Source of the DNA: an uncultured Planctomycetota bacterium
Lineage (GTDB): Bacteria > Planctomycetota > Planctomycetia > Gemmatales > Gemmataceae
Assembly: GCA_963849325.1 (NCBI GenBank)
Contig: CAWKHF010000011.1
Span: 64,001-128,000 of the forward strand
DNA: 64,000 nt
Reading direction: 5' to 3'
Below are positions 37,650-55,421 of the stretch, piece after piece (within the stretch, counting starts at the first letter, position 1; each line of letters starts with the position of its first letter). Both the position numbers and the translations under genes were made by a program. The notes under the pieces are model-generated. The model made no database searches. It was not told the origin of the DNA and saw only the letters and a list, made by a program, of their open reading frames with translations.

Positions 37650-37730
37650 CGGCTGGGACTCCTGCAATCCCGTACATCATGCGCGATGAAGGAGGGATTG
37701 AGAAGCCCAGTCGTCCGCATTCGGTTCCGC

Positions 37731-39266
37731 TTATTTCTTCCGAAGTCGCAGGTAGACGATGAGCACGTCCGCCTTGGGGTTTTCTTCGAGGAGTTCGGGC
37801 ACCGTATTCCAGAGGCCGAAGGGTTTGGGTACTGCGCCTGGAGCAATCCTCTCCTGCCTTCGGTTGCGAATCACCCACAACATCGGCGTCTCCGTCGCGG
37901 AGCCAGCTCCACGAGAGAACGAACCACTGCTGCCCCCGTCGCTGAAGTCAAATAATTCCTTCGGCACGTCGGCGCCCCCCGCACCCGTCATAAACCACTT
38001 GTGCCATCGGTTTCCACCGATTGCCAACTGCACTTGCATCCGGCAGTGTCCCTTCCGCGCCCCCGCCAGCGGAAGGTAATCCAGGTCCGCCGCGAGTAGA
38101 GCGACCTTCGCGCGACGGAATAGGCTCTTATCCTCGGACAGTTCCGTAAAGATCCTGCCGTTGATGTCCGGCAAGGCCCAATTCGTCTTCTGTTTCTTTC
38201 CGTCCTTGTACACGTCGATGTCCACGCCAAGGGCCGTGAGCGGTCCCTCCGGTCGTAGTTCGACCTCCCTCACCTCTTTGAAGATATGGAGCAGCGACGC
38301 CACATCCCCACCATCGTCCTCGGGGTGTGTGATTTTCATCGCCAGGGTTTCTTTCGCGGCAGGCTCGGCCGCCGGTTTCGGCTCCGCCGCCGGCTTTTCC
38401 TCCGCCGCCCGCATGGGGGCGAAGAAGGAGGCACTCAGCACGCCCAGCACGCCCACCGTCGCCAGGAACGCCGTCAGGAGCTTCACTTTCGTCAGAAGCA
38501 TCATTTGCAGTACCTCTTTCATGAGGAAGGCCGCCGGGGTCGTGACGGTTTGTCCCGCCGCGACCCGCAGGGCGTCGCCGGCCGTCGAAACAAGCAAAGA
38601 AGGCGATACCCAGGCGGATGCCGTCTCGCTCGACAGCGCCCCCGACAGCATCGCCGCCGAAATCGCCAGATGGTGCCGAGCCAGTCGCTTCGCCAGCATT
38701 TGCCGAGCCGTCGCCAACCGGCTGGACAGAGTACCCTCGGGCAGACCGAGCTGCCGCGCGACCTCCTGGCGCGATCGTCCTTCCAGATGGCACAGGACGA
38801 TGGGCGTTCGATAGCGTTCCGGCAAGCGGCTCAGTTCGCGCTCCAGCAAGGGGCGCCAATCCTGCGGCTCGGCGGGCGGCACTTCGGCGGCTGTCGCCGC
38901 CTCCAAGGGCGCCTCCCGAGTGCGGCGCCGGGCGATGCTCTTGCGAGCTTGCAGGGCGGTACGATACGCCACGCCATACAGCCAGTTCCCTATCGCCTCG
39001 CCGTTGCGCAGAGTAGGGGGCTTGTGCGCCAGCACGAGAAAGACGGCCTGGAAGGCGTCCTCCGCATCCTGGACGTGGCCCAGCACTCGCCGGCATACGG
39101 CGAACACCATGCCGCCATGACGGCGCACCAGGGCCGCAAACGAGGCTTCATCCCGGCGAGCGACGAAGCAGGCCAGGAGCTGTCCATCCGTGGCAGCCCC
39201 CTCGGCGCCGGGCGGAAGCGCTCGGTGAAGGTGCGCGAGGACTTCTTTCAGTCGGCCGCGGAGCAT
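37731..39266 (-). CDS. Planctomycete ECF sigma-70 factor with TM segment and extracytoplasmic C-terminal domain
   Basis: TDGQLL..F, LVRRHGGMV, DAEDAFQAVFLVL, LPERYRTPIVLCHLEG, GTLSSRL; TM followed by a domain I do not recognise. Confidence 0.92.
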   Translation of the reverse strand: MLRGRLKEVLAHLHRALPPGAEGAATDGQLLACFVARRDEASFAALVRRHGGMVFAVCRRVLGHVQDAEDAFQAVFLVLAHKPPTLRNGEAIGNWLYGVAYRTALQARKSIARRRTREAPLEAATAAEVPPAEPQDWRPLLERELSRLPERYRTPIVLCHLEGRSRQEVARQLGLPEGTLSSRLATARQMLAKRLARHHLAISAAMLSGALSSETASAWVSPSLLVSTAGDALRVAAGQTVTTPAAFLMKEVLQMMLLTKVKLLTAFLATVGVLGVLSASFFAPMRAAEEKPAAEPKPAAEPAAKETLAMKITHPEDDGGDVASLLHIFKEVREVELRPEGPLTALGVDIDVYKDGKKQKTNWALPDINGRIFTELSEDKSLFRRAKVALLAADLDYLPLAGARKGHCRMQVQLAIGGNRWHKWFMTGAGGADVPKELFDFSDGGSSGSFSRGAGSATETPMLWVIRNRRQERIAPGAVPKPFGLWNTVPELLEENPKADVLIVYLRLRKK

Positions 39267-39428: not shown

Positions 39429-39968
39429 TTACTTTTTGTCGTTGGCAGGTTTGCCCGCTTGTTCTGGCTTCTTGTCCTTGTCCGGTTTCTCGAATTTCGT
39501 GTCCGTCGCCCCGGAGTCAGACGGCGGCAGAGAACTGCGTACTCCAATGACGTAGCCGACCATGAGGGCGCCGAAGATGAGCAGGAACCACAGCAGACTG
39601 TTGAGCAAACCCGTCGTCGCGTCGCCGTCCGGGTTCCAGTTGGCCATCCAGCGGCGAAAGCGCGTCTGCTTGCGCAGCTTCTGGAGCCAGCGACGGCCCG
39701 GCGCGGTCTGATCGAACTGGCGCACGGCCGTGGCCACCTTGCCGACCTGCCGCCGTGCCGTGGCGTTGTCCGGATCGACTTCCAGCACGGCCAGGTATGC
39801 CCACACGGCCTCGCCCAGTTCGCCGGCGCGGGTCAATGCCTCCGCCTGAGACAGCCCCTCGCGAAGGTCATCGACGTAGTGGACCAGCAGCGACACATCC
39901 GTGCGGCAGTTGAGGCACTCCTTCTCCAGCCCGCGCAGCTTTTTCTTGCACATCGGGCACGTCAGCAT
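39429..39968 (-). CDS. Zinc-ribbon + TPR protein with C-terminal TM helix
   Basis: CPMC...CLNC; TPR (GELGEAVWAYLAVLEVDPDN); TM LLWFLLIFGALMVGYVIG. Confidence 0.82.
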   Translation of the reverse strand: MLTCPMCKKKLRGLEKECLNCRTDVSLLVHYVDDLREGLSQAEALTRAGELGEAVWAYLAVLEVDPDNATARRQVGKVATAVRQFDQTAPGRRWLQKLRKQTRFRRWMANWNPDGDATTGLLNSLLWFLLIFGALMVGYVIGVRSSLPPSDSGATDTKFEKPDKDKKPEQAGKPANDKK

Positions 39969-39991
39969 GGGTGGCGTCCTTGAGTGTCCAT

Positions 39992-40046
39992 CCGAGCCGC
40001 GACCGTTAGGGAGCGGAGACACCGCTCGCTAACGCTCGCGGCTCGG
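39992..40046. repeat. REP-like palindrome (CCGAGCCGCGACCGTT family)
   Basis: Inverted arms; second copy at 45672-45727 inside a TPR gene. Confidence 0.85.
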
Positions 40047-40058
40047 CTCGCCAGCAGG

Positions 40059-41797
40059 TCACAGCAAATAGGCGTAATTGAGCAAGCGATCGTTGAGCGT
40101 GGCGCTGGCGTCTTCCATCTTCTTGCGATCGCCCGAACCCATCGCCTGGCGCACGATCCGGCACAGTTCCTCCAACTCCTTGCGATCTTCCGGGTTGTCG
40201 ATGCGCGGGATGACGTCCTGCTCCGTCTTCTTGAGCACCTCAATGGCGTCCTTGTACTCCTGCGTGCTCTCCAACTCCAGCGTGCGATTGACCAGCTCTT
40301 CGTTGATGCGCTTCAGCTTGATGAGCTGCGAAGCGTCCATCTGATCCTCGCCGGCCTGCTGGATGGCGAAGCGCTTTTTCTGGCCGGCGTAGGGATCGTG
40401 GATTTGCACGGTCAGAATGCCGTCGTCGCCGTACTCGAACGACACGTCGAGTCCGCCGTCGCGTTGCGGCCGCGGCGGCTTGAACTCCCAGGGGATTTCC
40501 GCCAGCTTGACGTTCTCCGGCGAATCCGGGTTGTCGTACAGGTCGCCTTCGTAGACGCTGATGAGCACGCGGTCGGCGGGGTCGGCCACCGGATAATACA
40601 TCTTGCTGAACGAACACGGAATGTCCGAGCCGCGCTTGATGATCGGATCGAGAAAGACGCGATTGGTGCGCTGATCGACCGGGTTGGCGCACAGCGAATG
40701 CTCCAGCTTGACGCTGTAGGCGTAATTGTCCAGGCCGGGCGCCCCTGCAGGATGGCCGACACGATGGCGGCGCCCTGGGCGACGCACGTCATCGGATCGA
40801 CGCGATCGAACCCCTCCGGCTCCTTGCCGGCCAGTTTTTCCGCGACGTAACGACGGACCAGGGGAATCTTGCTGGTGCCGCCGACGAGCAGCACGCGATC
40901 GATGTCGCGCGGCCGCAGCTTGGCCAGCTTCATCGCCTCGTCGATGGCCGTGCCCGACTTGATGACCAGCGGCATGATGAGACGCTCGAACTCGCCTCGG
41001 CTAAGTTCCTCTTCCAGGCTCAGGTGTCGCTCCGGCACCAGCTCGGCCTTGCGAGCGACGGCCATCTGCTCCGCGGACAGGTCGATCTTGGCCCGCTCGA
41101 CGGCGAGCATGAACTGTTGCCTGTATGGCGAATTGAGGATGTCGAAGCCGGTCTTGTCGTGGAAGCGCTCGGCCAGCACCTTGGCGAGAATGGCGTCGAG
41201 GTCGTCGCCGCCGAGCTTGCCGATACCCTTGCTGGCGACTTCCTCGAAGATGCCGTGATGGATCTTGAGGACCGTCACGTCGAGCGTGCCGCCGCCGAAG
41301 TCGTAGACCAGCACGGTTTGATCGTCCTGGGCATTGAGTCCATAGCAGATGGCGGCGGCGGTCGGTTCGTTGATGAGCGTCAATACCTGAAGACCGGCGG
41401 CGCCGGCGCATAGCTTCGTGGCGTGGCGCGCCAGACCCTTGGAGTTGGCCGGAATGGTCACGACGGCCTTGGTGAAGCTCTCGCCCAGGACCGACTCGGC
41501 GTCTTTCTTGAGCAGGCTGAAGAGCATGACGGCGATCTGCTCGGTGCGCAGGTTCTGGCCGACCAGCGGCACGCGCTCCGGCGTGCCGAGGATGCGCTTG
41601 ATGGAGCGAATCGAGCGCTGCTCGTCGAAGTTTTCCTTGGCTTCCTGACCGAAGGCGAGGGTGCCGTCGCGGCGCAGCGTGACGATGGAGGGCGTCCACT
41701 TCAGCCCCTCGTGATTGGGCACCACCTCGGCCTGACCGTACTGGAAGTTGGCCACCACCGAATTGCTGGTCCCGAAGTCGATGCCGATGTAGGGCAT
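40059..41797 (-). CDS. Hsp70-family protein A, non-canonical DnaK paralog of ~580 aa (frameshift ~40740)
   Basis: GIDFGTSNS, INEPTAAA, VYDFGGGTLDVT, LGGDDLD, LLVGGTSKIP; SBD-like ISVYEG...VSFEYGDDGILTV; short helical lid. Confidence 0.93.
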
Positions 41798-41815
41798 GGA
41801 AGCTACCTCATGAAG

Positions 41816-42031
41816 AAAAACCACGAATCACACGAATAAGAAGCTGTAACTTTTTGGCGAGCGGGGGGCGTAAGCCCCCTGTTTTTCGCCGTCAACAGGG
41901 GGCTTACGCCCCCCGCTCGCCTATTTGGGTAGTGCCTCTAAGACAAATAACCGTGCCACCGGCGCCTTGCCCACTTCTTATTCTTTTTCTCTTCTTCTTT
42001 ATTCGTGTGATTCGTGTGATTCGTGGTTTTT
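41816..42031. repeat. CACGAATCACACGAAT-family inverted repeat hosting a nested element
   Basis: Left arm 41816-41839, right arm ~41998-42031. Confidence 0.75.
41840..41938. mobile_element. 99-bp MITE-like element, copy 3 (same termini, different internal palindrome)
   Basis: TAA|GAAGCTGTAAC...TAGTGCCTC|TAA enclosing GGCGAGCGGGGGGCGTAAGCCCCCTG / CAGGGGGCTTACGCCCCCCGCTCGCC. Confidence 0.7.
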
Positions 42032-42039
42032 TGTCTTTC

Positions 42040-42645
42040 TTATTCGGAAACGATGACCTTGGGCCGGCGCAGGACGAATTCGGGTTGCTGGCTGGCGTAG
42101 CCGCGCTCGATCTGTTCGGCGACGAGCAGCGGTCCCATGCCCTCGACGCGCTTGCTGCCGACGCGCTCGTGGATGGCCGGGTTATACGCGGCGCTGATGA
42201 CGGCGTCATACGGCTGAATACCGTGCCGCAGCAGGGCGGCGTCCACCTTGCGCGACTCGACCTCGACCGCTTCGATCCAGCGCTTCACCGCCTCCAGGTC
42301 ATCCAGCGACGGGCGGGCGGCGACGATGGCCCGCAAATCGTGAGCGGTTTCGATTAACTCGTTGAGCAGGGCCAGGCTGACGCGCTTCTCGCCGTGCGTC
42401 TCCTGCCGCAGCTGTTGGTAGGCGCGCTGCGTGTCGGCCGCGAAGCTGTTGAAGCTCGTCTTCAGCTCGTCGCGGACCTTGTTGAGCGTCTGCTCCAGAG
42501 AGCGCAGCTGGCGCTTGTCGTACTCGCGCAGGGCGATGACTTCCTCGCACAGCTTGTACATCGTGGAGGAGCCGAGCGTATCGAGATCGCGGGAGGTCCC
42601 CGGTTCGGAGTTGCCGGGCACGCCCTGCAAAAAATCAGCGCTCAT
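42040..42645 (-). CDS. grpE: Nucleotide exchange factor GrpE-like
   Basis: Long coiled coil then LLRHGIQPY...YNPAIHERV...ERGY...VLRRPKVIVS. Confidence 0.85.
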   Translation of the reverse strand: MSADFLQGVPGNSEPGTSRDLDTLGSSTMYKLCEEVIALREYDKRQLRSLEQTLNKVRDELKTSFNSFAADTQRAYQQLRQETHGEKRVSLALLNELIETAHDLRAIVAARPSLDDLEAVKRWIEAVEVESRKVDAALLRHGIQPYDAVISAAYNPAIHERVGSKRVEGMGPLLVAEQIERGYASQQPEFVLRRPKVIVSE

Positions 42646-42655
42646 TTCGGTAGTC

Positions 42656-43176
42656 CTAGTTCGGAATTCGGACTTCGAGTTCAATGGCCCAGGGATCCAG
42701 CGGTTGTTGTACGAGACGTTCGAGCAGCAGCGGCACGGCCGGCACCTCTTCGGGCACCTTGGGCACGACCAGGGCGGCACGGACGGCGTTGACGTTCGGG
42801 CACTTCGGCGGAGGGCCGGTAGTCGGCCAGCGCCTTCTCGCTGTCCTGCGGCTGCCACAGGCGACCGGCCTGGCCGTCTTCCACGCCGTAGCGCCGCGAA
42901 CTGCGCCAGCACGCCGTCGCTGGTGTCGGCGTTGAGGCTGGCGGCGTCGGCCCGGATGCGCCGCTCGGTATCGTGCAGGACCTCGCGGGCCCAGTTGATG
43001 TCCTCCAGCGGGACCTTGGATTGTCCCTTCCGCGCCCACTTCAGACGGTCGGCCCAGTGGGCGTCGATGGCCTTCTGGTCCGCCGCCTTGTCGAGACCGA
43101 GCAGCAGAAACGGCCCCACCTGCTCGCGCGGCAGCGTGGCCAACTCCAGCACAACGGGTTCCGGACTTCGACCCAT
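42656..43176 (-). CDS. J-domain-like protein lacking the HPD motif (frameshifts ~42895 and ~42795)
   Basis: GPFLLLGLDKAADQKAIDAHWADRLKWARKG...LEDINWAREVLHDTERR aligns by eye with J-domain helices I-IV. Confidence 0.7.
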
Positions 43177-43189
43177 AATGTCCTCTCAT

Positions 43190-43310
43190 TTCACCGCAGA
43201 GGACGCAGAGAGCGCAGAGAGAAGACAGACAAATACCTTGCTCCGTCTTCGATTCTTTCAGGTTTCTCTCCTTTTCTTCTCTTTGCGCTCTCTGCGTCCT
43301 CTGCGGTGAA
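43190..43310. repeat. REP-like inverted repeat (TTCACCGCAGAGGACGCAGAG family)
   Basis: About 28-bp inverted arms around a ~60-bp spacer. Confidence 0.85.
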
Positions 43311-43318
43311 TCTTTATT

Positions 43319-44933
43319 TTACGCGCCCATCGAGCGGCACGCTTCCATCTTTTTATCGATATGCTCGGCCAGGTCACGCACGATGCGGCGATGTTCGTCG
43401 TTGCTGACCAGCGGCAGGCATTTGCCGGTGATACGGCGGAGCTTCTGAAACTCGCGGAGCAGGTCGCGCATCACCTCGCGCACCGCCGACCAGTTAATCT
43501 GGTAATTGGGCAGGTTGCGCACCTGATCGATGACCTTGCTCATCTGGTCGGTCAGTTGATCGCATAGGTTGCCCATCAGCGGAATGACGTTGCCGACCAT
43601 GCTGATCGCCCGCTCCTCGACGCGGGTGTCGTTGGGGTAGCGCTTGAGGATGCGGTCGATGTCGGACAGCAGTTTTTCGATGTCGTTGAGTCCCTTGACC
43701 TCGATGAGGTCGAGTTCGTACAGCTCGTACTGCGGTTCGCCGGGCCGCAAGCGTCGCAGCTGCTTCCAGGGTGCGGCGGGCGTCCTGCGGCCGCTTGGAC
43801 TGATTATACAGGTGGAAGAGGCGTTCGAGCGTGTCCGGGTCGTTGGGCCGCAGATGGGCGGTGCGCTGGACGTAGCTGAGGGCGCTGGACCATTTCTCTT
43901 TCTCGCCGTAGCGCGACGCGAGCCGGCCCAGGCTCTCGTAGGCCAGGTGCTCGATGTACTTCGGGATGTCCGGCGGGGCCGGCACGCCATCGTCCAGCAG
44001 GTCGAAATAGCGGTTCCAGTACGGATCGGCCTGAGCCAGTTCGCCCTTGAATTCGTAGATGAGGGCCAGGTTCTGGTGCAGGCGGGCATCGTTGGGGGCC
44101 AGTTTGATCGCCGCGGCGAAGTGCTTGATGGCGTCATCGAATTCGTGCGTCATGCCGGCGCAGCAGCCGAGCAGGTTGAGCAGGGCGACTTGCGTGGCTC
44201 GGCTGCCGCTCCGTTCGCGGGCCAGCGGACGCAGCAGCAGCTCGGCGTCGGTCCAGGCGCAGCGATCGATTAGCTCCTTGGCCTTGACGAGCACCGCCTC
44301 CAGGTACGCCTCGCGCACCGCCACGCTGCGCGGCCGGGCCTCGGTCAAGGTCTTCAGCAGGACATGCACGGTGTCGAGCTGGCCGAGGCTGCGAACGACC
44401 TGGAGCAGGCGCTGCTCATCGTCGGAGGTCAGCTCGGCCAGGAGCGGCACGTCCGGCGGCGCGCCGTTCGCCTGGCGGCACGCCTGCAACAACGCCTGCA
44501 AGACCAGCAGGAAACGCCGTTCCTCCCGCGTCTCGCCGGGACGATGGGCCAGCAGTTCGATGGCGTTGGGGATGAGGGCGAGACAGTCCTCGACCTTGCC
44601 GAGCGTGAGGCGCGTCAGCAGCAGGTTGTGACAGATTTCGTAGGAACCGGGGTCCATCTGCCCGGCGCGGGCGAACTCGTCCTCGGCCTGGGCCAGCTGA
44701 TTCTCTTGCAGCGACAGCAGGCCCATTTGCAGGACGACGTTGGCGTCGGGCCGCTGGATCTTGCGCAGGGCGTTGCGGGCCTCGGTGAGCTTGCCCTGCC
44801 GTTTGTGGGCCAGGGCCAGCATGTATAGCACGTTGGCGTCCTGGCAGCCGGACTGGACGGCACGTTCGAGGACCTGAGCCGCCACCTCGTAGGGCGACAG
44901 GATTGGCTCCGCAATGGGGATTACTTCGGACAC
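43319..44933 (-). CDS. TPR protein with helical C-terminal domain (frameshift ~43770)
   Basis: Multiple TPRs (e.g. AIKLAPNDARLHQNLALIYE); GTG at 44933 after GGAGAG. Confidence 0.88.
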
Positions 44934-44944
44934 AAGGCTCTCCA

Positions 44945-45002
44945 GTTCTGAGTTCTGAGTAACAGAAGCACGTCGATTGTTTTTCACTCAGAACTCAGAA
45001 CT
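44945..45002. repeat. Inverted heptamer arrays (AGTTCTG)n / (CAGAACT)n at a gene junction
   Basis: Directly visible; related to the heptamers at 25684-25777 and 42658-42682. Confidence 0.75.
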
Positions 45003-47783
45003 TACTGAATACAGCAAGTCGCTGCCCGGCCCGCACCAGGGCGAGGGTCATCAACGGCCCCAGGCGGCGATCGCGCAGGCCGAGCTTGCCGGCCTCGCGG
45101 AAGCGGTCGGCCGCCTGCTCGAAGCGACCATTCTCGTAGGCCAATAGCCCCGACAGCAGCACCGTCTGCCGCAACGGCTCGTCGAATTGCCACTCGCCCC
45201 GCCTGGGAGGATCGACGCTATTCCACCACTTGATGGCCTCGTCGTAGGCGCCGCGGTCGAAGCTCAAACGGCCCAGCATGGCGCGGGCGTAGACCGCCGA
45301 CGGACTTTTCTCGACCGCGGCCACCTTCAGCAACGCTTGCTGAGCGGCAGCAACATTGTTCTGGTGCAAATAGGCCCAGGCCATCAAGAACTGACTTTCC
45401 ACGGCCAGCGCCTCGTCCTCGGCGGCCCGCTGGCTCAATTCGAGGACGGTCCCGTAATTGTTCGCGGCCAGGTGGCAGACGGCGCCGAGGTAGTGGAAGC
45501 GCGGATCGCGCACCTCGGGGCGATTCATCGCCGGCGCCTGCGCCGCCAGGCCGGCTCGATCGCCCAGGACCGAGCGCACCGCCGCCAGACACCACAAGGC
45601 ATCGATGTGGTTCGGATCGTCGCGCAGGCATGTCTCCAGCAAGGTCAACGAGGATGCCAGCGAGGAATGATCCGAGCCGCGACCGTTCGGGAGCGATTGC
45701 CCCCGCTCGCTCACGCTCGCAGCTCGGTTGTTGCCCAAGGTCTCGCGCAAGGCCAGCCGAGCGCCCAGGAAGGCGATGGCGGCACGGAGCGGGCCGCGGC
45801 GTCAGCCCCAGGGCGCGGTCGATGGCCTTGGCACGACGGTCGGCGTTGCCGCGCTCCTGCTCGATGATGGCCTGGCGCACCAGCGGCCAATGATCGGTCG
45901 GGGCCAGGCGGTGCCAGCCGGTGAGGAGGGCCACGGCCCCATCCATGTCGCCACGACGGTAGTTCAGGCACGCCAGCCGATCGTGTCCGGCGATGCTCGA
46001 CGGGTCCAGGCGGAGCAGCACCTCGACGCAGACTGCGCCGGCTCCTGGTGCCCCGACTCCTCCTGCGCGGCGCGAGCGCTCCAGCAGGAACGATTCGCCG
46101 TGGGCCGCGTAACTGCCGCCGAGCACGCCAGGGTACTGTCCCGGCGCGCTCAGCGGCGCTGCGCTCCAGGTAGGCGTACTCGGCGTCGTCGAAGCTCCAC
46201 TGCTGCTGCTCGAAGTAGGCACGGGCAGCGCCGGACTCGGCGAAGGTGCGGGAGAACAGGTCGAGATCACGGTCACTGCTGGAGCCGTGGACGGTGGCCG
46301 CCCGCACGTACAGGAAGGCGTGCCGCGGCCGGACGGCGTCGGGGAACGTGCGCGGCCAGGTGAGCGTAGGCGTCGGCGGCCTGCGGGTCGGTGGCGTGAA
46401 CCGAGGCGAGCACGTCGCACAACTGGAGCTGCTCGTCCTTGCCCAGCGTCATGTTCAGCCGCCGGGCCTCGGCGTGGACGGCGCGATGAGGCCGGCCCAC
46501 TCGGCGTTGTCGAAGACGGGATAGCGGGCCAGCAGGCGGATGGCCCAAGCGACGTTGCGCGGCTTGTCCTCGGGGTTGGTTGGCTTGCCCAGGGCGCCGC
46601 ACAGGCCGAGATAGCCGGCCGTGAAGGGATCCTTGGGTTCTTCTTGTTCCAGGGCGATGCGCAGGTGCTTGTAAGCCTGGTCGTAGCGGCCGCAGCGGGC
46701 CAGGGACAGGCCCAGACCGCGCAGCAGCGGCACCGTGGGAGGACTGTCTTGCAGAAGCTTGGCGAAAAGGTCGGCCGCTTCCGGGAAGTCGCCGTGACGG
46801 TAATGCGCCTGCGCCATGGCGAACCGCCCCTGCCGCAGAATGACGGTCAGGTCCGGACCGAGGACGGGGCAGACGTAGGGATACTTGTTGGCCAAGCGGC
46901 GAACGTAGGAGTGTGCTTCGGGAAAGGCTTCGACCCAGGCGCGCTCCGGCCGGGCCGTCCACAGCCCGAAGCCGCGCGGCCCCAGGGCGCGTTGCAGGGC
47001 GCGCAGGGCGAGTCCGCTATCGCCGCCCGCCGCGACGAGGGAGGCACCCATCTGGCAGGTCACGAACGGACAGCTCGCCTCGACGCGGTTGGCCTCAGCG
47101 AGATAACGCAAACTCTCCTGCGCCTTGCCTTGCCGATAGAGCAGCACACCGAGATAGAACGCCGGATCGAGATAGTGTTTGCCGGCCTGTTCGTGCGCCG
47201 TCGCCAGGGCGGCCATCGCCTCCTCGATCTTTTCCTGGCGGACCAGGCACAACCCTTTCCAGAAGGACGCTTCCGGGCACGGCGGCCGCACGGCGAAGAT
47301 GCGTTCCAGCAGGTGCAGGACGGCTTGCGTGTCTTCCCCCTCACCCCTTCCCCTCTCCCCCCCAGGGGGGAGAGGGGTTAGGGGTGAGGGGGTGGCGGCG
47401 AACAGGCGCCGCGCCTCGGCCAGCATCGCCTCGACGATGCGCGTGCGCTGTTCGTCCTGGTCCAGTCCGAGGCGAGCGCCTGCTTCGAGAGCGTGTCGCA
47501 GAGCTTCCTCGAAGTTTTTTTCCTTGAGCATCTGCTCGGCGCCGCGCTGGTGGCACTCACCGGCGACGACGCGGAGACGATCTTGCCAGACGGGCGGCAG
47601 CCGCGGCTCGGCCAGCAGGGCCGTCACGATGTCCAGCGCGGGCTGCCAGTCGCCTTGTTCGAGCAGGCGCTGAGCGTGGCGGAAGGCGCGATGGCGGCGC
47701 GGCCCGCGCCCCAGCAGCAACCACAGGCACAGCGCCAGCGAGAGCACGAAGACGGCGACAAGGAGGAGGATCTTAACAGTCAC
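44988..47783 (-). CDS. Large TPR protein with N-terminal membrane anchor (several frameshifts; 3' end approximate)
   Basis: Hydrophobic ILLLVAVFVLSLALCLWLLL, then TPR arrays continuing through ORFs 46455-47783, 45711-46307, 45218-46420 and 44995-45750. Confidence 0.82.
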
Positions 47784-47840
47784 AGCGGTCGTTTCCTTCG
47801 CGGTCCAATCCGCTCGGCGTGCAGGGGCGATCTCTCCTCA

Positions 47841-50477
47841 TTATGGCGGATTCCATCGCCGAAGGGCAGCTTTTGCTTCGCGTGTTTCGGGCGTCAGGGC
47901 GCCGTCGGCGAGTTTCTCCAGGATGCACCGCGCCTCCGACGTGCCGATGCGTTCGAGCACGGCGATGGCCCGCAGCGTCCGCAGGGCTTCCTTCGACGGC
48001 CGCCTCGGTTGGGCGAGAAGGGCCTCCAGTCGTCGGCGCATCTCCAGCGAGGGCCGGCCTTGCAATGCCCGTCGCAGCAGAGGCTCGGCTTCGTAGCATG
48101 TGCGGCTCAACTCCTGAGAAGCTGCCTCGCGCGTCCGGAACGAATCGTCATCGAGATCGGCCAACAGTTTCTCGATGTGTTGGACTTTCTTATTCGACGC
48201 CGGCTCCAGATTCGTGCGCAGCAACGGCACAGCTTGCTCCGGTGTGGCTGCCAGCGTGTGGAGGGCGCGAGAAGCCTTGCGGGCATCGCCGGCCAGATCG
48301 GACCATAGCGACGCCAACCCCTTCGGACCAAGCTCTCGCTTCGGCTTGTGGCCCGACCATGTCGAAACTTCCAGATCCCAGAGGAGAATATCTCCCTCCG
48401 CCATGCTCGCGGCGACACGACCGCCCGGCAGGGCGACCAGGGAAGGAACGTAGGGCCAGCCCAAATCGTCCAACGTCTTTGCGATGCTGTCCGGCCACGC
48501 CACCTGATGCAATTTCTCACCCGTGACTGTATCCCAGACACACAGGTTCTTATGATCCGACACGATCAGGGCGCGACTATCTGGGCTGAAGGCAATGGTA
48601 TTGGGAGCTGGCAAGTTCAGGCGGACAACCTCCTCGCCCGTCGCCATCTCGATCAACGACCGCACCTCGATACCTTCATGCTCCGGATCTCCATCCTTCG
48701 CCGACCGGATCAACGCGGCGAGAAGTCGTCCATCGGAGGAAAAAACCAGCGGACTCTTTACCTCCCTGGGCAACTTCGCCAGCAAACAGCCGGTCGAGAC
48801 TTCCTCTATCCCCAACCGCTTGCCCAGCCAGACGCTTAACCGCTCGCCGCCCGGCGCCAAGTCCGCATGGCCGTCGCCGATTAGTCCATCGACTTCGCCG
48901 CGGATCTTAAATTGGTAGGGTCGTTGACTCAACCGTTTCCCGGAGTCCGCGTCCCAGACGACGAGTTGCCCGGGCGGATCTTCCTCCTTCGAGTAGACCC
49001 CCGCAAAGTATTTGCCATCGGCGGAAAGGGCCGCCGTATGCAGACAAGCAATTTTCCCCTTGCCCTCCCCGTCGATGATCCGTCCCAGCGGCTTGCCATT
49101 GGTCACATTCCAGACATGAAAAGTGAAATGAACTCCGCCGGACCACTCCATGGCTCCCAGGTTTCCGGCCGCGACGCGCTGACCATCGCTGGAAAGGAAG
49201 CAGTCGGTGATGAAAAGGTTCCTTTCCTGCCATTTCCGGAGTTGTCTGCTCGTGGTGGCGTCCCACAGGCGCAGAACCCCATCGTGGTCCCCGGAGGCGA
49301 TGATCTTGCCATCGGGGGAAGCGGCCAGCGCCAATCCGATCTGGTCGTGTCCGGGCCGATGGTGCAGGGAGCGACCCGAAGAGGTGTCATAAAGGCGAAT
49401 GGCGCAGCCGTCATGGCAGGCGAGCGTTTTGCCGTCGGGCGCGAACGTAAGCCGGCTTCCGTGGCGTGCCGGCAATTGTTGCATTTGCTGCGCCTTCGAT
49501 AGATCCCAGAGGAGTATGTGATGGGGTATCTCGAAAGTGAACCCGTGCGGGAGGTATCGGCGCGTGCCCCAAATCGCAGCAAACCATCGCCCATCCGGAG
49601 AGAAGGTAGGCTCATGGACAAAGTTTGCGGCGGCCATCGACGGTGCTCGCAACCGCGACTTCTCCTCCAGGGTATCTGCCGCCAAGAATCGAACTACCGC
49701 CTCGTCGCGTCCACCCACAGTCAGCGTCTTGCCGTCGGGCGAAAAAGCCATTGAGCCGGCATCGATCCGGCGAAGGTTTTTCCTCGCGCGGAGCGATTGA
49801 CCCGTGGTCGTGTCCCAGAGAGAAAGATCAAAACGCGAATCGACGGACGTTCCGGGGATTGTCTCGGATCTCGGCGATCCCAGCCAATCGTTTGCCATCG
49901 GATGTGAAAACAACATTCGACAGCTGGATCTCAGGAGGAGTTGCCAATGTTTGATGGAGTTGAATCGTTTCTACATTCCATATTTGTGTGACGTACTTCC
50001 GAGCGCTCGAGCACATCTGGAGCATTAAGAATTTGCCGTCCGTGGAGAATTTCATGAGTTGATGAAGAAGGGCGGTGCCAAGGCACGGGATCCGGCCCCG
50101 TTCTCTGCCTGTACTGGTGTCGTACAGATATACCGTCTCGCCGTCCCAAGTCGCCGCCATGGTCCCGCCGGGCGACAAGGACACGGCCACGAACCGCTTA
50201 TCCTTTCGCGGTTTTCCGGGCAACTGTTGTCGCCACACCAGCTTCCCCGAGGCAACGTCCCAGATGCGGATTTCGCCATCGCGGTCACAGGAGATCAACT
50301 GGCTACCGTCCTTCGAAAATACTACCTTGGCGCCGGCGTGCCGCAACCGCACCGTGCCCAGGCGAGCTACGGCGCCGGGCGGCAGCGGATCGCCATACAA
50401 ATCCACACGCGGCGCCTCCCCCTTGAGAGAGCCGTGCTTCCCAGCAGCATGAGAGTGGTGAATACCGTGCGATTCAT
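47841..50477 (-). CDS. Exported WD40-repeat protein of planctomycete type (frameshifts ~50420 and ~49900)
   Basis: Signal-like start, DLYGDPLPPGAVARLGTVRLRH, repeated FSPDGK/LWD, C-terminal LRAIAVLERIGT...EAKAALRR. Confidence 0.9.
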
Positions 50478-50534
50478 GACCGAATCTCCGTCAACCGCTT
50501 GCAGCCTGGCGTACTCCGTTAAGCCGCAAGCGTC

Positions 50535-53228
50535 TCAGAACGACCCTTCCAATAACCCGGCGTCATCGCCCGGTGTTAACCGTCGATTCTGAAGCAGGTT
50601 CGCCACCTTCTCGACCTCCGTCCCCAGCCGGTTCGTGTCGCGCAGCACGGCCAGCGGCTCCGTCTTGATGCGCTGACTCAGTCCCCGCGCCTGGGCGGCG
50701 ATTTCGGTCAGGCGCGTCTCCAGGTCGGCGCGTTGACGTTCGCGCACCTGCTTCCACACGGAGGACAGGTAGGCGCGGAAGCGTTCGAGTTCGGCGCGGG
50801 CCTCTTCCTCGGGCGGACGGCTCGGTCGCGGCGGACGCGGCAGCGTGTCGCGCAACAGCTGCGTCAGATAGCCGCCGTACTTCTCCAGGTTCTCGTGACA
50901 CTCGCGGTACAGGGCTTGGTTGTGCTCCTCGTAAGCCTGCTCGGCGTAGCGCTCCTGGGCGCGGATGTGCTCGCTCAGTTCGTCGCGGTCGCGGCCGGTC
51001 TTGTCGGCGACCTCGGCGGCCAGATCGAGGCAATGATGCACCAGCTGGACGAAGCGCGGCCAGGGTGGATCGAGTGTCTGACCGTGGCTCGTCTCCAACT
51101 GCTGCAAGAGCTCGCGCAGCTCGGCCATGCGCTGGATGGCCTTCGGCTCGTCGTCGTAGCGCAGCGCCTCGAAGAGATCCTGACGGATTTGCTGCGCCCT
51201 GGCCCGCAGGCGCGTGCGGAAGCTGCCGCTGAACTGCGGTAACAGATCGTCAATTTGCTTCTGCACCTCGTCGATGTCGGCGCGGGTCGGCCGTCGCGGC
51301 GGCGGCGGCGCCTCGATGGTCGCCGTCTCGCAACGCTCGTAGGAATTGGACAGGCGGAGGCGCACGCGCACCTCAATGACGTGCTTGACATCGATGGCGA
51401 ACTCGACCTCGACCGGCGAGCCGACCGGCAGGCTCGGATCGAGGTCTTCGATCACCATCTGTTTGACGACGCGGTTCTCCTCGAAGATGGGCACGACGAT
51501 GCGGCCGGCCTGGTCGTGTGTGCGGCAGATGCACTGAAACACACCCGGCAGTGTCGCGCCGACGGGCGCCACCACCTGCTTGACGCGCTGGCCGCCGCGC
51601 GACAGCACTTCGATTTGCAGCGGCTTGGTGATGAGCTGCGTCGGCAGTACGGCCTGGCCCAGATGCCGCGCCTCGCTCTGATGCCGCACGACTACGACGA
51701 CGCGGGCCGTCTCCTGTCCGGAGCCGTCGCAAACCGCGAACTCCAGAGCGTTGTCCGTCTCCGCTTGCAGCTCCAGCTCGTGGGCGAACGTGCCGCGCTC
51801 GTCGAGAAATGCCTCCTCCGTCAGCCCCGTCGCCAGCGCCCGGATGCGCACCGAGCCGCCCTCCAGCGTGGCCTCCGTCGATTCCAGTCGCACAACGCCG
51901 GTTGCCTGGTAAGCAAGGTCACGGGTGTTGACCGGACTGGTCAGGTGCAGTCCGATGCCGGGGAAGAGATACTGTGTCCCGTGGGTCGCGGCCCGGAGGG
52001 CGGCGCCGTAAGCGACGCACAGGTCCGGCTCGTGCAGCAGCGGGTCGAGACAGCGGACGTGCTCGGGCAGTTCCGGGTTGCAGAAGGCGGCGCGGACGGT
52101 GTCGCGGACCAGGGGGACGCGGCTGGAGCCGCCGACCAGAACGACGTAATCGATGTCCGACAGGCCCAATCCCGCTCGCTCCCGAGCGCGGGCCAAGGCG
52201 TCGCGGCAGCAATCGATGGTTCGGTCCACCTTATCGCGGATGAGACGTTGAAAGACGCTTCGCTCAACGCTCGTCTCCAGCGTGATGCCCCGGCCGTCGG
52301 CGTCGCGGACCAGGTCGGGCAGATAGCGCTCGACGCGCTCGGCATCCGTCAAGGCGATCTTGATGCTCTCGGCGGCCTGCACCAGCCCGACGAAGTTCCC
52401 CGCGCCGGCCGGCGTCGAGAGGTCGAAGAGCGCCGAGAGCGTCTCGGCCGGGACCGGCGCTGTTCGCTCGCCTTCCCGACCCGCGAACCACGAGCTATTC
52501 TCCACGAGATGCGTGGCCAGCAGGCGGTCGAAGTCGTCGCCGCCGAGAAAGGGATCGCCGCTGACCGACAGCACTTCGTAGTCGTCGAAGCGGCGGCGGA
52601 TGATCGATACGTCAAAGGTGCCACCACCGAGGTCGTAGACGAGGTAAGTGGCGTCGCCGTGGCCGCCGATCCAGGAGTAATAGATGGCGGCGGCGGTCGG
52701 CTCGTGCAGCAGTTCGACCACCTCGAAGCCGGCCCGTTCGCCGGCCTGCCGGGTCGCCTCGATCTGATTGTGATTGAAGTACGCCGGCATTGTCAGGATG
52801 GCCGAGTCGATCAGCCGGCGCGGATCGTTCAGCGTGCGGGCCAGCATGTCGCGTAGAAGGCCCAGGATGCACGCCGACACCTCCGGCGGCGTCAGCCGCT
52901 GCGGCCCCAGGGCAAACTCGCGCGGCAGACCCATGAAGCGTTTGACCGAGGCCAGCGGCAGCTGGGTGGAGGGTGCTTCTTCTCCCTCCACTCTCCACCC
53001 TCCACCCTTCACCCGTTGGGCGGCGCGGCCGGCGACGAGGCGGTCATGCTTCGGGTGATAGCCGACCAGCGAAGGGAACGTGCGATGGCCGTGTTCGTCC
53101 TGTCCGGTGAGAATCGTGCTGTCGGTGGGATCGAGCAGGGCGATGACGCTGTTGGTGGTGCCCAGGTCGATGCCGACCGTTTTGCGGATGCGGAGAGGCG
53201 ATGAGGAGAGAGGAGAGGTGTGCGGCAT
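50535..53228 (-). CDS. Hsp70-family protein B, ~897 aa with internal insertion and long helical C-terminus
   Basis: GIDLGTTNS, TMPAYFN, LHEPTAAA, VYDLGGGTFDVS, LGGDDFD, VLVGGSSRVP; ~110-aa beta-rich insert before the SBD-like region. Confidence 0.93.
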   Translation of the reverse strand: MPHTSPLSSSPLRIRKTVGIDLGTTNSVIALLDPTDSTILTGQDEHGHRTFPSLVGYHPKHDRLVAGRAAQRVKGGGWRVEGEEAPSTQLPLASVKRFMGLPREFALGPQRLTPPEVSACILGLLRDMLARTLNDPRRLIDSAILTMPAYFNHNQIEATRQAGERAGFEVVELLHEPTAAAIYYSWIGGHGDATYLVYDLGGGTFDVSIIRRRFDDYEVLSVSGDPFLGGDDFDRLLATHLVENSSWFAGREGERTAPVPAETLSALFDLSTPAGAGNFVGLVQAAESIKIALTDAERVERYLPDLVRDADGRGITLETSVERSVFQRLIRDKVDRTIDCCRDALARARERAGLGLSDIDYVVLVGGSSRVPLVRDTVRAAFCNPELPEHVRCLDPLLHEPDLCVAYGAALRAATHGTQYLFPGIGLHLTSPVNTRDLAYQATGVVRLESTEATLEGGSVRIRALATGLTEEAFLDERGTFAHELELQAETDNALEFAVCDGSGQETARVVVVVRHQSEARHLGQAVLPTQLITKPLQIEVLSRGGQRVKQVVAPVGATLPGVFQCICRTHDQAGRIVVPIFEENRVVKQMVIEDLDPSLPVGSPVEVEFAIDVKHVIEVRVRLRLSNSYERCETATIEAPPPPRRPTRADIDEVQKQIDDLLPQFSGSFRTRLRARAQQIRQDLFEALRYDDEPKAIQRMAELRELLQQLETSHGQTLDPPWPRFVQLVHHCLDLAAEVADKTGRDRDELSEHIRAQERYAEQAYEEHNQALYRECHENLEKYGGYLTQLLRDTLPRPPRPSRPPEEEARAELERFRAYLSSVWKQVRERQRADLETRLTEIAAQARGLSQRIKTEPLAVLRDTNRLGTEVEKVANLLQNRRLTPGDDAGLLEGSF

Positions 53229-53304
53229 GGGTTGTCCCGCTCGTCCTTCTTCCGCTGGGGAAAAAGGAAACCCGTGGCTCGGCCGGATCGGTAGGTAGCT
53301 TATC

Positions 53305-53710
53305 GGGCCCGCTGAGGTGTGGAACAAATCCCGGCTTGCAAGCAAGCCGCAACGCTCAGCACCGTATCAGCCGAAATCCAGCCAGGCAACGGGTTTCGCG
53401 GAAACCATGTGGCGTTTCGACTGGGACACCTCCTGTTTACCTCGGCCAGGAGTCGGCTTGCGGGAGACGGGATCGGGGAACACGAAATCGTTCTTTTTGG
53501 GGGAGGGCGTTGGCCACCCAAATCCGTATGTGCCGAAATCCCCTCGAGCAAACCTCCTCGTTGTTGCCCGCCCTGCGGCCCAGAGCCAGCAGAGCTTCCC
53601 GACCCACAGGCCGCGAGAAGAGCAGATGAGACGGCCTACGGGCCAGAATCTTGAAGTGCGCCTTCTAGTGCTCAACGCCTCGCGGCGTCACTGGGTGAAG
53701 TAGTCTACAA
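53305..53710 (-). ncRNA. Candidate structured non-coding RNA or long 5' leader (family not recognised)
   Basis: Follows a sigma70 promoter; consecutive hairpins with G-U pairs on the minus strand; no convincing ORF. Confidence 0.5.
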
Positions 53711-53936: not shown

Positions 53937-55322
53937 ATGAGCCATCAGGGGGCGCTCACCCGGGTTGTGCCGATTCGCGCCGGCAACTCACGCCGAATCG
54001 CCGGAGTTTCCTGAAAGCCGGTGTCCTCGGCAGCGCCGGACTCAGCCTTGGCGAACTTCTGCGTCAGGAGGCGCGAGCGGTCATCTCCACCACCTCCGGG
54101 CGCAAACCGTCGGTCATCATCCTGTGGATGCGCGGCGGTCCCAGCCACATCGACATGTGGGACCCCAAGCCAGACGCCCCGGTCGAGTATCGCGGCGAGT
54201 TCGGCGTTACGCCGAGCAAGGTGCCCGGCATCCTCCTGGGCGACCTGCTGCCGATGTCCGGCCGGATCATGGAGAAGTGGTCCATCGTCCGCAGCCTCCA
54301 CCACCACGACGCCGGCCACTCCACCGGCGATCAGATTTGCTTCACCGGCTATCCCTCCGGCCCCAACCCGGACGAGAACGTCCATCCCAGCTGCGGCTCG
54401 ATCGTCGCCCGGCAGCTCGGCCACGAAGATCCGCGTCTGCCGGCCTACGTGATGATCCCGCGCATGGTGCCGGGGACGGGGCCGGCCTATCTCGGCGTGG
54501 CGAACAAGCCGTTCGAGACGCTGGCCGATCCGGCCCAGCCGGGCCCGTTCCGCATGCCCAATTTCGCTCTGCCGGCCGGCCTGACCCTGGAGCGTCTCGG
54601 CGAACGTCGCCAGCTGCTCGGCGAGCTTCGATCGCCTGCGCCGCGACGTGGACGCCGGCGGACAGATGAACGCCCTGGACCGCTTCCATCAGAAGGCGTG
54701 GGACATCCTCACGTCCGCCGCCGCACGCGATGCCTTCGACCTGGACAACGAGCCGATGGCCGTCCGCGAGCGTTACGGCTTTCTGCCGCCGTTCGATCCC
54801 GGCGCGTCCAACCGCTGCGGCGCGCCGGCGTGGAGCCAGCGCATCCTGCTGGCCCGCCGCCTCGTCGAGGCCGGCGTGCGCCTGGTCACGGTCGATCTGC
54901 GCTGGTGGGACACGCACGTCAAGGGCTTCGAGTCGCTGCGTCTGGGCTTCCTGCCGCGCTTCGACCGGGCGTACACGGCGCTGATCGAGGACCTGGAGCA
55001 GCGCGGCTTGCTGGAATCGACGCTGGTGATCGCCTGGGGCGAGTTCGGCCGGACGCCGCGCGTCAACAACGACGCCGGCCGCGATCACTACCCCAACGTC
55101 TTCAGCGCCGCCCTGGCGGGCGGCCCGGTCAAGGGCGGCCGGGTGGTCGGCGAGTCCGACGCGAAGGGGGCGTTCCCGAAGACGAACCCCAAGACGCCGC
55201 AGGACGTGCTCGCCACGCTGTATCAGCACCTCGGCGTCGATACCGAGCAGCAATACCTCAACAACACCGGCCGTCCCATCTCCGTCCTGCCCAGCGGCAA
55301 GCCGATCGAAGAGCTGACCTAG
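53937..55322 (+). CDS. DUF1501 domain protein (several frameshifts)
   Basis: RBS AAGGAG; Tat-like RREFLK, VIILWMRGGPSHIDMWDPKP, LLARRLVEAGV, WDTH, GEFGRTP, GRDHYP. Confidence 0.92.
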
Positions 55323-55344
55323 GACCAATCGAAAAACGCATTCC

Positions 55345-55411
55345 CGTTTCGCCGCGACGCGCAGCGGAGCGCGGGGCAATCCCGCGCTCCGCTGCGCGTC
55401 GCGGCGAAACG
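55345..55411. repeat. Perfect 31-bp-arm palindrome between convergent genes
   Basis: CGTTTCGCCGCGACGCGCAGCGGAGCGCGGG / CCCGCGCTCCGCTGCGCGTCGCGGCGAAACG. Confidence 0.9.
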
Positions 55412-55421
55412 AAAAGCCGAG

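Follow-up and report, generated by a model that had tools for sequence, protein, structure and literature searches.

A candidate membrane-tethered, specialised Hsp70 system in uncultured Gemmataceae

Described systems related to the locus

Specialised Hsp70 systems with private cofactors are, to our knowledge, few and mostly eukaryotic. A candidate for such a system has been detected in an uncultured planctomycete of the family Gemmataceae, on a 64,000-nucleotide (nt) stretch of contig CAWKHF010000011.1 (assembly GCA_963849325.1) which is referred to here as the window. A string of seven genes, delimited by Pfam matches and by intact copies in relatives, lies there on a single strand (minus, 39429-53345). 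The core of the system is six genes, namely those for two tetratricopeptide repeat (TPR) proteins (TPR1 and TPR2), a J-like protein, a GrpE-family nucleotide exchange factor, an Hsp70 (Hsp70-A) and a zinc-ribbon/TPR protein (the Zn-ribbon protein), and a second, oversized Hsp70 (Hsp70-B) is a recurrent but facultative member. Judging from sequence comparison, the locus probably encodes a lineage-specific, membrane-tethered and specialised Hsp70 machine, vertically inherited in roughly half of the Gemmataceae.

In Escherichia coli, HscC works without GrpE. The hscC locus resembles the window in combining a divergent, short-lidded Hsp70 with J-proteins of its own that lack a full His-Pro-Asp (HPD) motif and with helical-repeat genes (YbeQ/YbeT, Sel1), but it contains no GrpE or Zn-ribbon gene, and its J-proteins DjlB and DjlC keep the histidine and the proline. 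These two proteins carry HPE in place of HPD, a pairing with HscC that is, in the available part of the source, the only tolerated HPD change, while HPD replacement abolishes ATPase stimulation in known J/Hsp70 pairs (PMC13254874). Another parallel is the mitochondrial presequence translocase-associated motor (PAM), which comprises mtHsp70, Tim44, Pam18/Pam16, Mge1 and Zim17/Hep1 in the account available (PMC9695410). The two may work alike, by analogy only: each combines an Hsp70 tethered at the membrane with a J-like subunit devoid of HPD, a homologue of GrpE and a small zinc-binding partner. The structures matched by the J-like model include Tim14-Tim16 (Z 6.2). The window differs in that its cluster holds no equivalent of the HPD-bearing Pam18 and in that the tether consists of TPR proteins, not Tim44. 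In addition, the Zn-ribbon protein has no match to Pfam zf-DNL and no translocon gene occurs among the recurrent neighbours.

A private GrpE has also been described in Myxococcus xanthus, where MxDnaK2 (SglK) is co-transcribed with MXAN_6672 as a bicistronic unit, with no neighbouring J protein mentioned in the portion of the paper available (PMC11019930); the window, in contrast, has a J-like protein, TPR proteins, a Zn-ribbon protein and anchors. Hsp70-B is comparable to Hsp110/Grp170, both being oversized paralogues in which the ATPase domain is intact, the linker departs from the canonical form and the C-terminal half is enlarged, although this half of Hsp70-B could not be aligned by sequence methods to any Hsp70 substrate-binding domain. 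In the accessible text of a 2026 review, bacterial DnaK paralogues containing the nucleotide-binding domain (NBD) have been proposed to be Hsp110-like co-chaperones (PMC13580251). Finally, Kaur et al. (2020) described GTPase-centred conflict neighbourhoods with Hsp70, GrpE, ATPase-only Hsp70 and TPR- or DnaJ-fused partners, found mainly in actinobacteria and firmicutes according to the sections available (PMC7159879). Neither a GTPase of the GAP1-N2 type nor a partner with fibronectin type III (FNIII) repeats was found in any member of the window system, and all-against-all clustering of neighbours at 73 loci revealed no further recurrent gene. In PADLOC-DB 2.0 the only matches were two weak ones to generic TPR models (E 1e-4 and 3e-3), and the other five proteins had none. 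Across NCBIfam, where scores stayed below the equivalog cut-offs, the literature searched and PADLOC, with its weak TPR matches only, no characterised system matched the set.

Gene order, distribution and a related module

The genome to which the window belongs (G000) consists of 14 contigs, is 84.7% complete and contains many broken frames. Gene models were obtained by aligning the window to an intact copy from the same genus (locus L027 of genome G009), in which TPR1 has 936 amino acids (aa), TPR2 556 aa, the J-like protein 176 aa, the GrpE-like protein 204 aa, Hsp70-A 584 aa and the Zn-ribbon protein 181 aa. All frame breaks in the window string with respect to G009 are indels of 1-2 nt, and frameshifting indels hit five genes, those for Hsp70-A, the J-like protein, TPR2, TPR1 and a WD40 protein discussed below, with sites at approximately 40742, 42796, 42894, 43762, 45800, 46148, 46353 and 46484. 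Because most of them adjoin GCGC/CGCG words, we infer that they are long-read base-calling errors, possibly at a methylated motif. The intact copies also revise a preliminary description of the locus. All the domains it had named are present, but the eight genes that it counted are seven, since the 926-976-aa TPR1 of relatives is one gene: its "TM-anchored TPR" and "TPR" genes (44995-47783) are a single gene broken by 1-nt indels. With the split removed, three TPR proteins are distinguished, namely TPR1, TPR2 and the Zn-ribbon/TPR protein. A single 378-aa open reading frame (ORF) at 42040-43176 represents two genes, J-like (42656-43176) and GrpE-like (42040-42645). A promoter and terminator scan gave site counts not above those of shuffled sequence (1 vs 1.7; 12 vs 11.3).

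Gene order was compared at 77 loci with close relatives of Hsp70-A (65-100% identity), all from metagenome-assembled genomes, mostly recorded as Gemmataceae or Gemmatales; 73 of the loci have a usable Hsp70-A, and counts are restricted to loci with enough flanking DNA. The Zn-ribbon gene follows Hsp70-A at 48 of 61 loci, and upstream of Hsp70-A are found the GrpE-like gene (38/67), the J-like gene (33/61), TPR2 (27/51) and TPR1 (21/43). Among the 36 loci with at least 9 kilobases (kb) of upstream sequence, the order Hsp70-B-TPR1-TPR2-J-GrpE-Hsp70-A occurs at ten and the same order without Hsp70-B at eight, and the shorter strings TPR2-J-GrpE and J-GrpE occur at one and three respectively. Recurrence of the order in dozens of other genomes puts the arrangement far outside what chance would give, and the gene order laid out in the preliminary description is conserved in Gemmataceae relatives. 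TPR1 and TPR2 are fused in genome G011 and at loci L084 and L106. The core genes co-occur even when they are split: Hsp70-A and the Zn-ribbon gene stand alone in G012, G016 and G017, where TPR1, TPR2 and the J-like gene lie together on another contig, followed by a detectable GrpE-like gene in G012 and G017. In two genomes where no Hsp70-A was found (G013 and G014), the J-like protein and TPR2 were not found either.

At a threshold of E<=1e-120, 70 of the family's 151 sampled genomes have an Hsp70-A (34 of the 88 that are of high quality), spread over 48 of 90 genera, and within a genus it is mostly present in all or in none. It is absent from the three single-contig genomes of the family searched (G013, G345 and G359) and was not found in 12 genomes of the sister family (E 1e-60). 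For the J-like type, the best score among 300 other genomes from the phylum did not surpass E 8.5e-12. So far the system has been seen only in uncultured Gemmataceae. The identities of Hsp70-A and DnaK to their counterparts in the window genome are 94/94% in G009, 93/91% in G004, 93/90% in G008, 83/74% in G017 and 81/76% in G016, with G011 (69/76%) as the exception. Since Hsp70-A is as conserved as DnaK, these values bear the signature of vertical inheritance under strong purifying selection and would not suit a mobile defence island or a defence role.

A second set of similar genes has been detected in the same genome (C10:6393-12138, locus L141), encoding a TPR scaffold, a J-like protein, a GrpE-like protein, an Hsp70 and a Zn-ribbon protein. 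This set is frameshifted too and has an intact copy in G009 (contig C328; L142:1749-7676), where the products are an 800-aa TPR-like scaffold with an acidic DDDW tail, a 97-aa J-like protein, a 297-aa GrpE-like protein, a 621-aa Hsp70 and a Zn-ribbon protein of about 104 aa without a transmembrane (TM) helix. A version of this generic module occurs in another planctomycete family (L136:3135-10744, G103:C399) in the order HtpG-TPR-J-GrpE-Hsp70. There the HtpG (Hsp90) gene shares the strand of the module and stands directly before it, and the TPR scaffold has a poly-Asp tail; no Zn-ribbon gene was seen at that locus. The J proteins of the generic modules carry SPE in place of HPD and score 36.9 and 51.9 bits to Pfam DnaJ (PF00226), and their Hsp70s, which retain PAYFND, R167 and VLLLD, form a clade in a quick tree (Shimodaira-Hasegawa-like approximate likelihood ratio test, SH-aLRT, 94).

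The generic module and the window system share the gene order TPR, J-like, GrpE-like, Hsp70 and Zn-ribbon, a J protein without HPD, and a Zn-ribbon protein with CxxC...CxxC and a helical unit. By BLASTP the two Hsp70s are 33% identical and the two Zn-ribbon proteins 33% over 54 aa (E 2e-6), whereas the TPR, J and GrpE pairs are too diverged to give matches. The window system differs in its two-gene scaffold, in the TM anchors on TPR1 and the Zn-ribbon protein and, often, in a second Hsp70. Its J-like protein falls below Pfam DnaJ detection, which the generic ones reach, and its Hsp70-A lacks R167, YFND and VLLLD, all three of which are kept in the generic Hsp70. On these sequence features, the window system is most fittingly regarded as a relative of the generic five-gene module that is more elaborate and membrane-anchored. 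No description of either form was found in the main texts of the literature searched. The earlier impression of an undescribed architecture holds to that extent, and has to be tempered by the presence in the same genome of the five-gene module of which it appears to be an elaborated form.

The encoded proteins

Hsp70-A (40059-41797, minus strand; about 579-584 aa) is covered in the window by Pfam HSP70 matches at 40412-41824 (283 bits) and 40059-40787 (31 bits), with a 1-nt indel near 40742, and an intact orthologue scores 318.8 bits. Its ATPase motifs (GIDFGTSNS, IKR, NEPTAAA, VYDFGGGTLDVT and LVGGTSKIP) are intact. Both Hsp70s possess the features of Hsp70 superfamily ATPases, that is, the phosphate-1, phosphate-2 and adenosine motifs and equivalents of K70, E171 and D194, and the ATPase motifs are invariant in 27 Hsp70-A and 8 Hsp70-B orthologues. 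When compared to E. coli DnaK, TVPAYFND is changed to TIPANSKG, R167 to threonine and the linker VLLLD to DNYAYSV, which leaves Hsp70-A devoid of the canonical J-interface and allosteric elements. R167, YFND and VLLLD are functionally important in the pairing of DnaK with J-domains. The lid is short, as the preliminary description had remarked together with TIPANS in place of TVPAYF, and the C-terminal tail LLNYAYLL is invariant in an alignment of 27 sequences.

That neither protein looks like the housekeeping DnaK, another point of the preliminary description, agrees with the following comparisons. Against the DnaK equivalog models NF001413/TIGR02350, whose cut-off is 648 bits, Hsp70-A scores 324.5 bits and Hsp70-B 228.4 bits, and both also stay below the HscA models of NCBIfam (279.5 bits, cut-off 708.55). 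Their identity to DnaK, HscA and HscC of E. coli is 30-35% (30% between Hsp70-A and HscC), as it is to the DnaK of the same genome, which is encoded at C2:92596-94428 and matches Pfam HSP70 with 793 bits. In two quick trees Hsp70-A and Hsp70-B appear as separate, long-branched clades outside DnaK+HscA and outside the generic-module Hsp70s; neither groups with HscC, HscC having a long branch and the deep forks not being settled. As an observation apart, the linker (LDNYAYSV, about residues 362-368 in G009 numbering) and the tail (LLNYAYLL, 577-584) of Hsp70-A share the tetrapeptide NYAY, and both segments are nearly invariant in 27 orthologues. A role as pseudo-linker or pseudo-substrate tail is conceivable, but was set aside, one repeated 4-mer in 584 aa being within chance. 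Three further Hsp70-like ATPase genes occur at C9:108346, C5:1032440 and C9:387595; two of them have open frames of 970 and 652 aa and group together, highly diverged, in the tree. The window genome thus holds at least seven Hsp70-family genes.

The J-like protein (42656-43176, minus strand; about 170 aa), whose gene has indels near 42894 and 42796, has no Pfam (E 0.1) or NCBIfam match of its own. Its AlphaFold2 model has a mean predicted local distance difference test (pLDDT) score of 69, rising to 85-90 over residues 21-70. The best VIA-align match superposes 63 residues on a 66-residue J-domain (Z 9.5, root-mean-square deviation 2.6 A), and nearly all of the 50 structural-match rows are J or J-like domains. 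Foldseek E-values are weak (0.05-1), with matches almost exclusively to J-domains. A sequence profile that includes distant family members picks up true DnaJ domains of other planctomycetes, with E values between 1e-6 and 1e-8 per genome, and all three of the matches checked score 94-99 bits to PF00226. A J-domain fold and a sequence relationship to J-domains are supported by these model and profile comparisons. The family is small, a profile search among 1.84 billion sequences giving only 168 representatives at E<=1e-3, and in the ten clusters looked up the named members are all "hypothetical", except for one CbpA. The motif at the HPD position is (W)AR(K/R)(G/N/Q), and the loss of HPD that had been read from the window sequence extends to the relatives compared: HPD occurs in none of 23 orthologues, where the consensus is WAR(K/R/Q)x, and in none of nine more distant members aligned. 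The C-terminal PLDPW is conserved in the 23 orthologues, D-x-W within it being invariant. A possible charge swap between the basic residue at the D35 position and E167 of Hsp70-B was considered and dropped because of the uncertain loop alignment, and because the residue does not vary with the presence of Hsp70-B. As described before, a canonical dnaJ is lacking, with no Pfam DnaJ domain detected anywhere on the contig.

The GrpE-family nucleotide exchange factor (42040-42645, minus strand; 201 aa) begins 10 nt past the J-like stop in the window, and the gap between the two genes has a median of 6 nt at 35 loci, intergenic distances in the system being short. Its Pfam GrpE match lies in the 3' half of the ORF at 42040-43176 (46.8 bits; cut-off 25.8). 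An intact orthologue reaches 48.1 bits against the same family (PF01025) over profile positions 13-165 of 165, and its score of 19.6 stays below the 266 demanded by the GrpE equivalog of NCBIfam.

Pfam TPR matches in the window lie at 46455-47783, 44995-45750, 43494-44987 and 39429-40022. TPR1 (44995-47783, minus strand; about 930 aa) is a single gene, as its intact orthologues align over the whole of this stretch, and has 1-nt indels in the window near 46484, 46353, 46148 and 45800. An N-terminal TM helix is followed by GPRRHRAFR and a TPR solenoid, and the helix with a subsequent GPRRxRAFR is present in 17 of 17 copies. TPR2 (43319-44987, minus strand), with an uncertain start codon and a 1-nt indel near 43762, is a soluble protein of about 540-556 aa. 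Its non-TPR C-terminal piece of about 130 aa is very conserved (91-95% identity to same-genus relatives), and in the ESM Atlas this domain retrieved only generic TPR-like clusters with scores <0.9. The Zn-ribbon protein (39429-39968, minus strand; 179 aa) combines CPxC-x11-CxxC with a TPR-like helical unit and a single TM helix at about residues 120-145. This tail anchor is found near the C-terminus in 46 of 46 copies, leaving an external tail of 17-75 aa which is poorly conserved. The TPR domains of TPR1 and the Zn-ribbon protein are predicted to be cytoplasmic on the basis of the positive-inside rule, the flank after the TPR1 helix being rich in arginine. Membrane localisation through TPR proteins, which the preliminary description had proposed, is in keeping with these predicted anchors, conserved in 17/17 TPR1 and 46/46 Zn-ribbon copies.

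Hsp70-B (50535-53345, minus strand) has a Pfam HSP70 match of 215 bits that covers the NBD only. Its ORF can be read from a TTG at 53345 (936 aa), and the likelier start is the ATG at 53228, which gives 897 aa and agrees with the length of about 900 aa first estimated. When compared to DnaK, its ATPase motifs are intact, with glutamate at 167, histidine at 170 and YLFPG. A ~100-aa insert after the ATPase domain is followed by a long beta-rich region and then a helical one, and the tail GLLEGS is invariant in eight aligned orthologues. E. coli DnaK aligns only to residues 54-451 by hhalign, and the C-terminal half (484 aa) has no PDB or Pfam match. A language-model search of the ESM Atlas with the G009 protein placed it nearest to two clusters named "Hsp70 family protein" (0.93 and 0.91), in which PF00012 is found on 13% and 31% of members, a result to be taken as a lead only.

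The C-terminal half of Hsp70-B was detected in 31 of 151 genomes of the family. Hsp70-A is present in 27 of these 31 carriers, the other four genomes being 75-88% complete. Of the 36 informative loci, ten have Hsp70-B directly upstream of TPR1 on the same strand. In G393, G433, G429, G335, G341, G382, G415, G405 and G456 it precedes Hsp70-A by 5.6-7.5 kb, also on the same strand; in the window, where the WD40 gene intervenes, 9 kb separate the two. Genome G014 keeps an Hsp70-B-TPR1 pair at a contig end. On the other hand, Hsp70-B was not found in the core-bearing genomes G011, G012, G016 and G017, and it is on a different large contig from Hsp70-A in G431 and G463. Within the genus, it is 74-84% identical, compared with 92-94% for Hsp70-A. 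Its membership is regarded as facultative because it is unlinked in three same-genus genomes and was not found in some core-bearing ones. The dual-Hsp70 system of the preliminary description is therefore retained in part: Hsp70-B does adjoin the core at the ten loci mentioned, and is a facultative component that same-genus relatives carry unlinked.

The remaining gene of the stretch encodes a WD40/beta-propeller protein (47841-50477, minus strand; Pfam WD40 matches at 47841-50406) with a signal-peptide-like N-terminus, MNRTVFTTLMLLGSTAL, and a helical C-terminus, and is frameshifted near 49830-49916 and near 50410. Although it had been counted as part of the system, it is judged from sequence to be a passenger, given its signal peptide, its presence between Hsp70-B and TPR1 in the window and at only 3 of 77 loci (L034, L036 and L081, the last from G009), and an identity of only 42-54% between copies. 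Two tandem paralogous secreted WD40 proteins of 871 and 854 aa are encoded in G009 (L027:10919-16095). They and the window protein belong to one family, characterised by beta-propeller repeats together with a signal peptide and, at the C-terminus, a conserved helical region, SLEMRRRLQAILA. This expanded WD40 family adjoins the chaperone module in one genus.

Further out, the string is flanked by genes for an extracytoplasmic function (ECF)-type sigma factor (37731-39266) and a Ser/Thr kinase (55422-56873). The sigma factor (minus strand; 511 aa) has Sigma70_r2 and r4, a TM segment and a C-terminal domain of about 230 aa, and its gene separates the Zn-ribbon gene from recQ, an insertion that G009 lacks at this place, recQ following directly there. 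The sigma gene had no matches near the module across the 77 loci, and paralogues of the kinase were weak and scattered. RecQ (35862-37667) is also out of frame near its 3' end. A frameshifted gene on the plus strand (54128-55462), opposite to Hsp70-B, stands between Hsp70-B and the kinase gene and is absent from this position in G004.

Proposed function and rival explanations

The system may be pictured as follows. Hsp70-A would run an ATP/ADP clamp cycle and be reset by the GrpE-like protein, while the J-like protein would regulate or stimulate it through a rewired interface, HPD having been lost on one side and R167, YFND and the linker changed on the other. The J-like protein could thus be a Pam16-like regulator or could have co-evolved with the altered surface of Hsp70-A. 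TPR1 and the Zn-ribbon protein would tether the machine to the cytoplasmic membrane on its inner side. TPR2 may be an adaptor, possibly one that docks the tails LLNYAYLL, GLLEGS and PLDPW much as EEVD tails are docked by TPR co-chaperones of eukaryotes. Hsp70-B, added in a subclade, would work together with Hsp70-A, perhaps in the manner of Hsp110 and Hsp70. The most likely task of the machine is to assemble, insert or remodel a protein or complex associated with the membrane. The suggestion of a self-contained Hsp70 set with private cofactors and a membrane tether, already made in the preliminary description, fits both the conserved order and the predicted anchors.

Several observations weigh against this picture. 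Five genes of the string are frameshifted in the window itself, and 14 of the 36 loci have none of the system's upstream genes beside Hsp70-A; the co-occurrence of the core in genomes with split loci rests on the three that were checked (G012, G016 and G017). Hsp70-B lies elsewhere, with differing and unrelated neighbours, in the same-genus genomes G009 and G004, and on a different contig from Hsp70-A in G008, also of the same genus (C217 vs C133); it is unlinked in several genomes with large contigs and far from Hsp70-A in G007. A Pfam DnaJ search found no HPD-bearing J-protein on the contig, and the J-like protein may be a non-stimulating regulator, because replacement of HPD abolishes stimulation in known pairs. 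Hsp70-A falls outside the clade of generic-module Hsp70s in a quick tree, its own stem being 2.33 changes per site long, so that descent from that module is only conjectural.

The linkage of Hsp70-B raises the possibility, unlikely in our estimate but the most serious of the rival explanations, that this protein is independent and merely tends to sit near the six-gene core, which alone would be the system. Its occurrence on other contigs with differing neighbours in G009 and G004, on separate contigs in G008, G431 and G463, and far from Hsp70-A in G007, as well as the failure to find it in four core-bearing genomes, would be expected if this were so. Set against that are the ten same-strand junctions with TPR1 among 36 loci, in genera whose Hsp70-A is 80-89% identical, the 27 of 31 carriers that also have Hsp70-A, the other four being incomplete genomes, and the Hsp70-B-TPR1 pair that G014 keeps. 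A regulatory switch is a further alternative, which we hold to be improbable. DnaK with sigma-32 and zinc-binding anti-sigma factors are precedents for such regulators. Here, Hsp70-A and the membrane-bound Zn-ribbon/TPR protein would sense a signal from the envelope or the membrane and sequester or release a regulator, with TPR1 and TPR2 as signalling scaffolds. The tightest pair of the locus is indeed Hsp70-A with this single-pass, short-tailed membrane protein (48/61 loci; TM helix in 46/46 copies), a J-like protein without HPD would fit a slow, switch-like ATPase, and ECF-type sigma and Ser/Thr kinase genes flank the string. Neither of the latter is conserved with the module at the 77 loci, however, nor is any other neighbour recurrent; the external tail of 17-75 aa is short and poorly conserved, and a private GrpE implies fast cycling.

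Even less probable is a role in biological conflict, such as anti-phage defence or abortive infection, with Hsp70 and TPR proteins as NTP-dependent sensors like those of Kaur et al. (2020). The mix of domains does resemble that of the neighbourhoods in the available part of that paper (PMC7159879), and Hsp70-B evolves faster than Hsp70-A. The members nevertheless contain no GTPase, FNIII or effector domain and are joined by no further recurrent gene, and PADLOC gave nothing beyond its two weak TPR-repeat matches. Conservation equals that of DnaK and the distribution is consistent within genera, as expected of vertical descent, while the GTPase-centred systems, in the same partial source, are mainly actinobacterial and firmicute (PMC7159879). 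The conflict option left open by the preliminary description is disfavoured on these grounds, and a specialised, membrane-tethered Hsp70 machine remains the preferred reading.

A bolder version of the machine can be drawn by analogy, and must be regarded as a long shot. The membranes of Gemmataceae are deeply invaginated. The locus would then be a bacterial counterpart of the membrane-bound Hsp70 motors of eukaryotes, with a TPR-tethered pair of Hsp70-A and an Hsp110-like Hsp70-B, a zinc-ribbon escort and a J-like drive free of HPD. The Hsp70 pair would pull, insert or strip proteins at the membrane in the way of the PAM motor or of Hsc70/auxilin, and the system would give the first demonstration of an Hsp70 working with a J partner that has lost H, P and D alike.

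The system constitutes a natural experiment on the rule that HPD is indispensable, as a partner with a J fold lacks all three residues and the interface of its Hsp70 is changed, yet conservation is at the level of DnaK. The pairing of a normal-sized with a giant Hsp70 makes the Hsp110-like proposal for bacterial DnaK paralogues testable. In a planctomycete clade with unusual membranes, the client of the system could reveal a lineage-specific step of membrane biogenesis.

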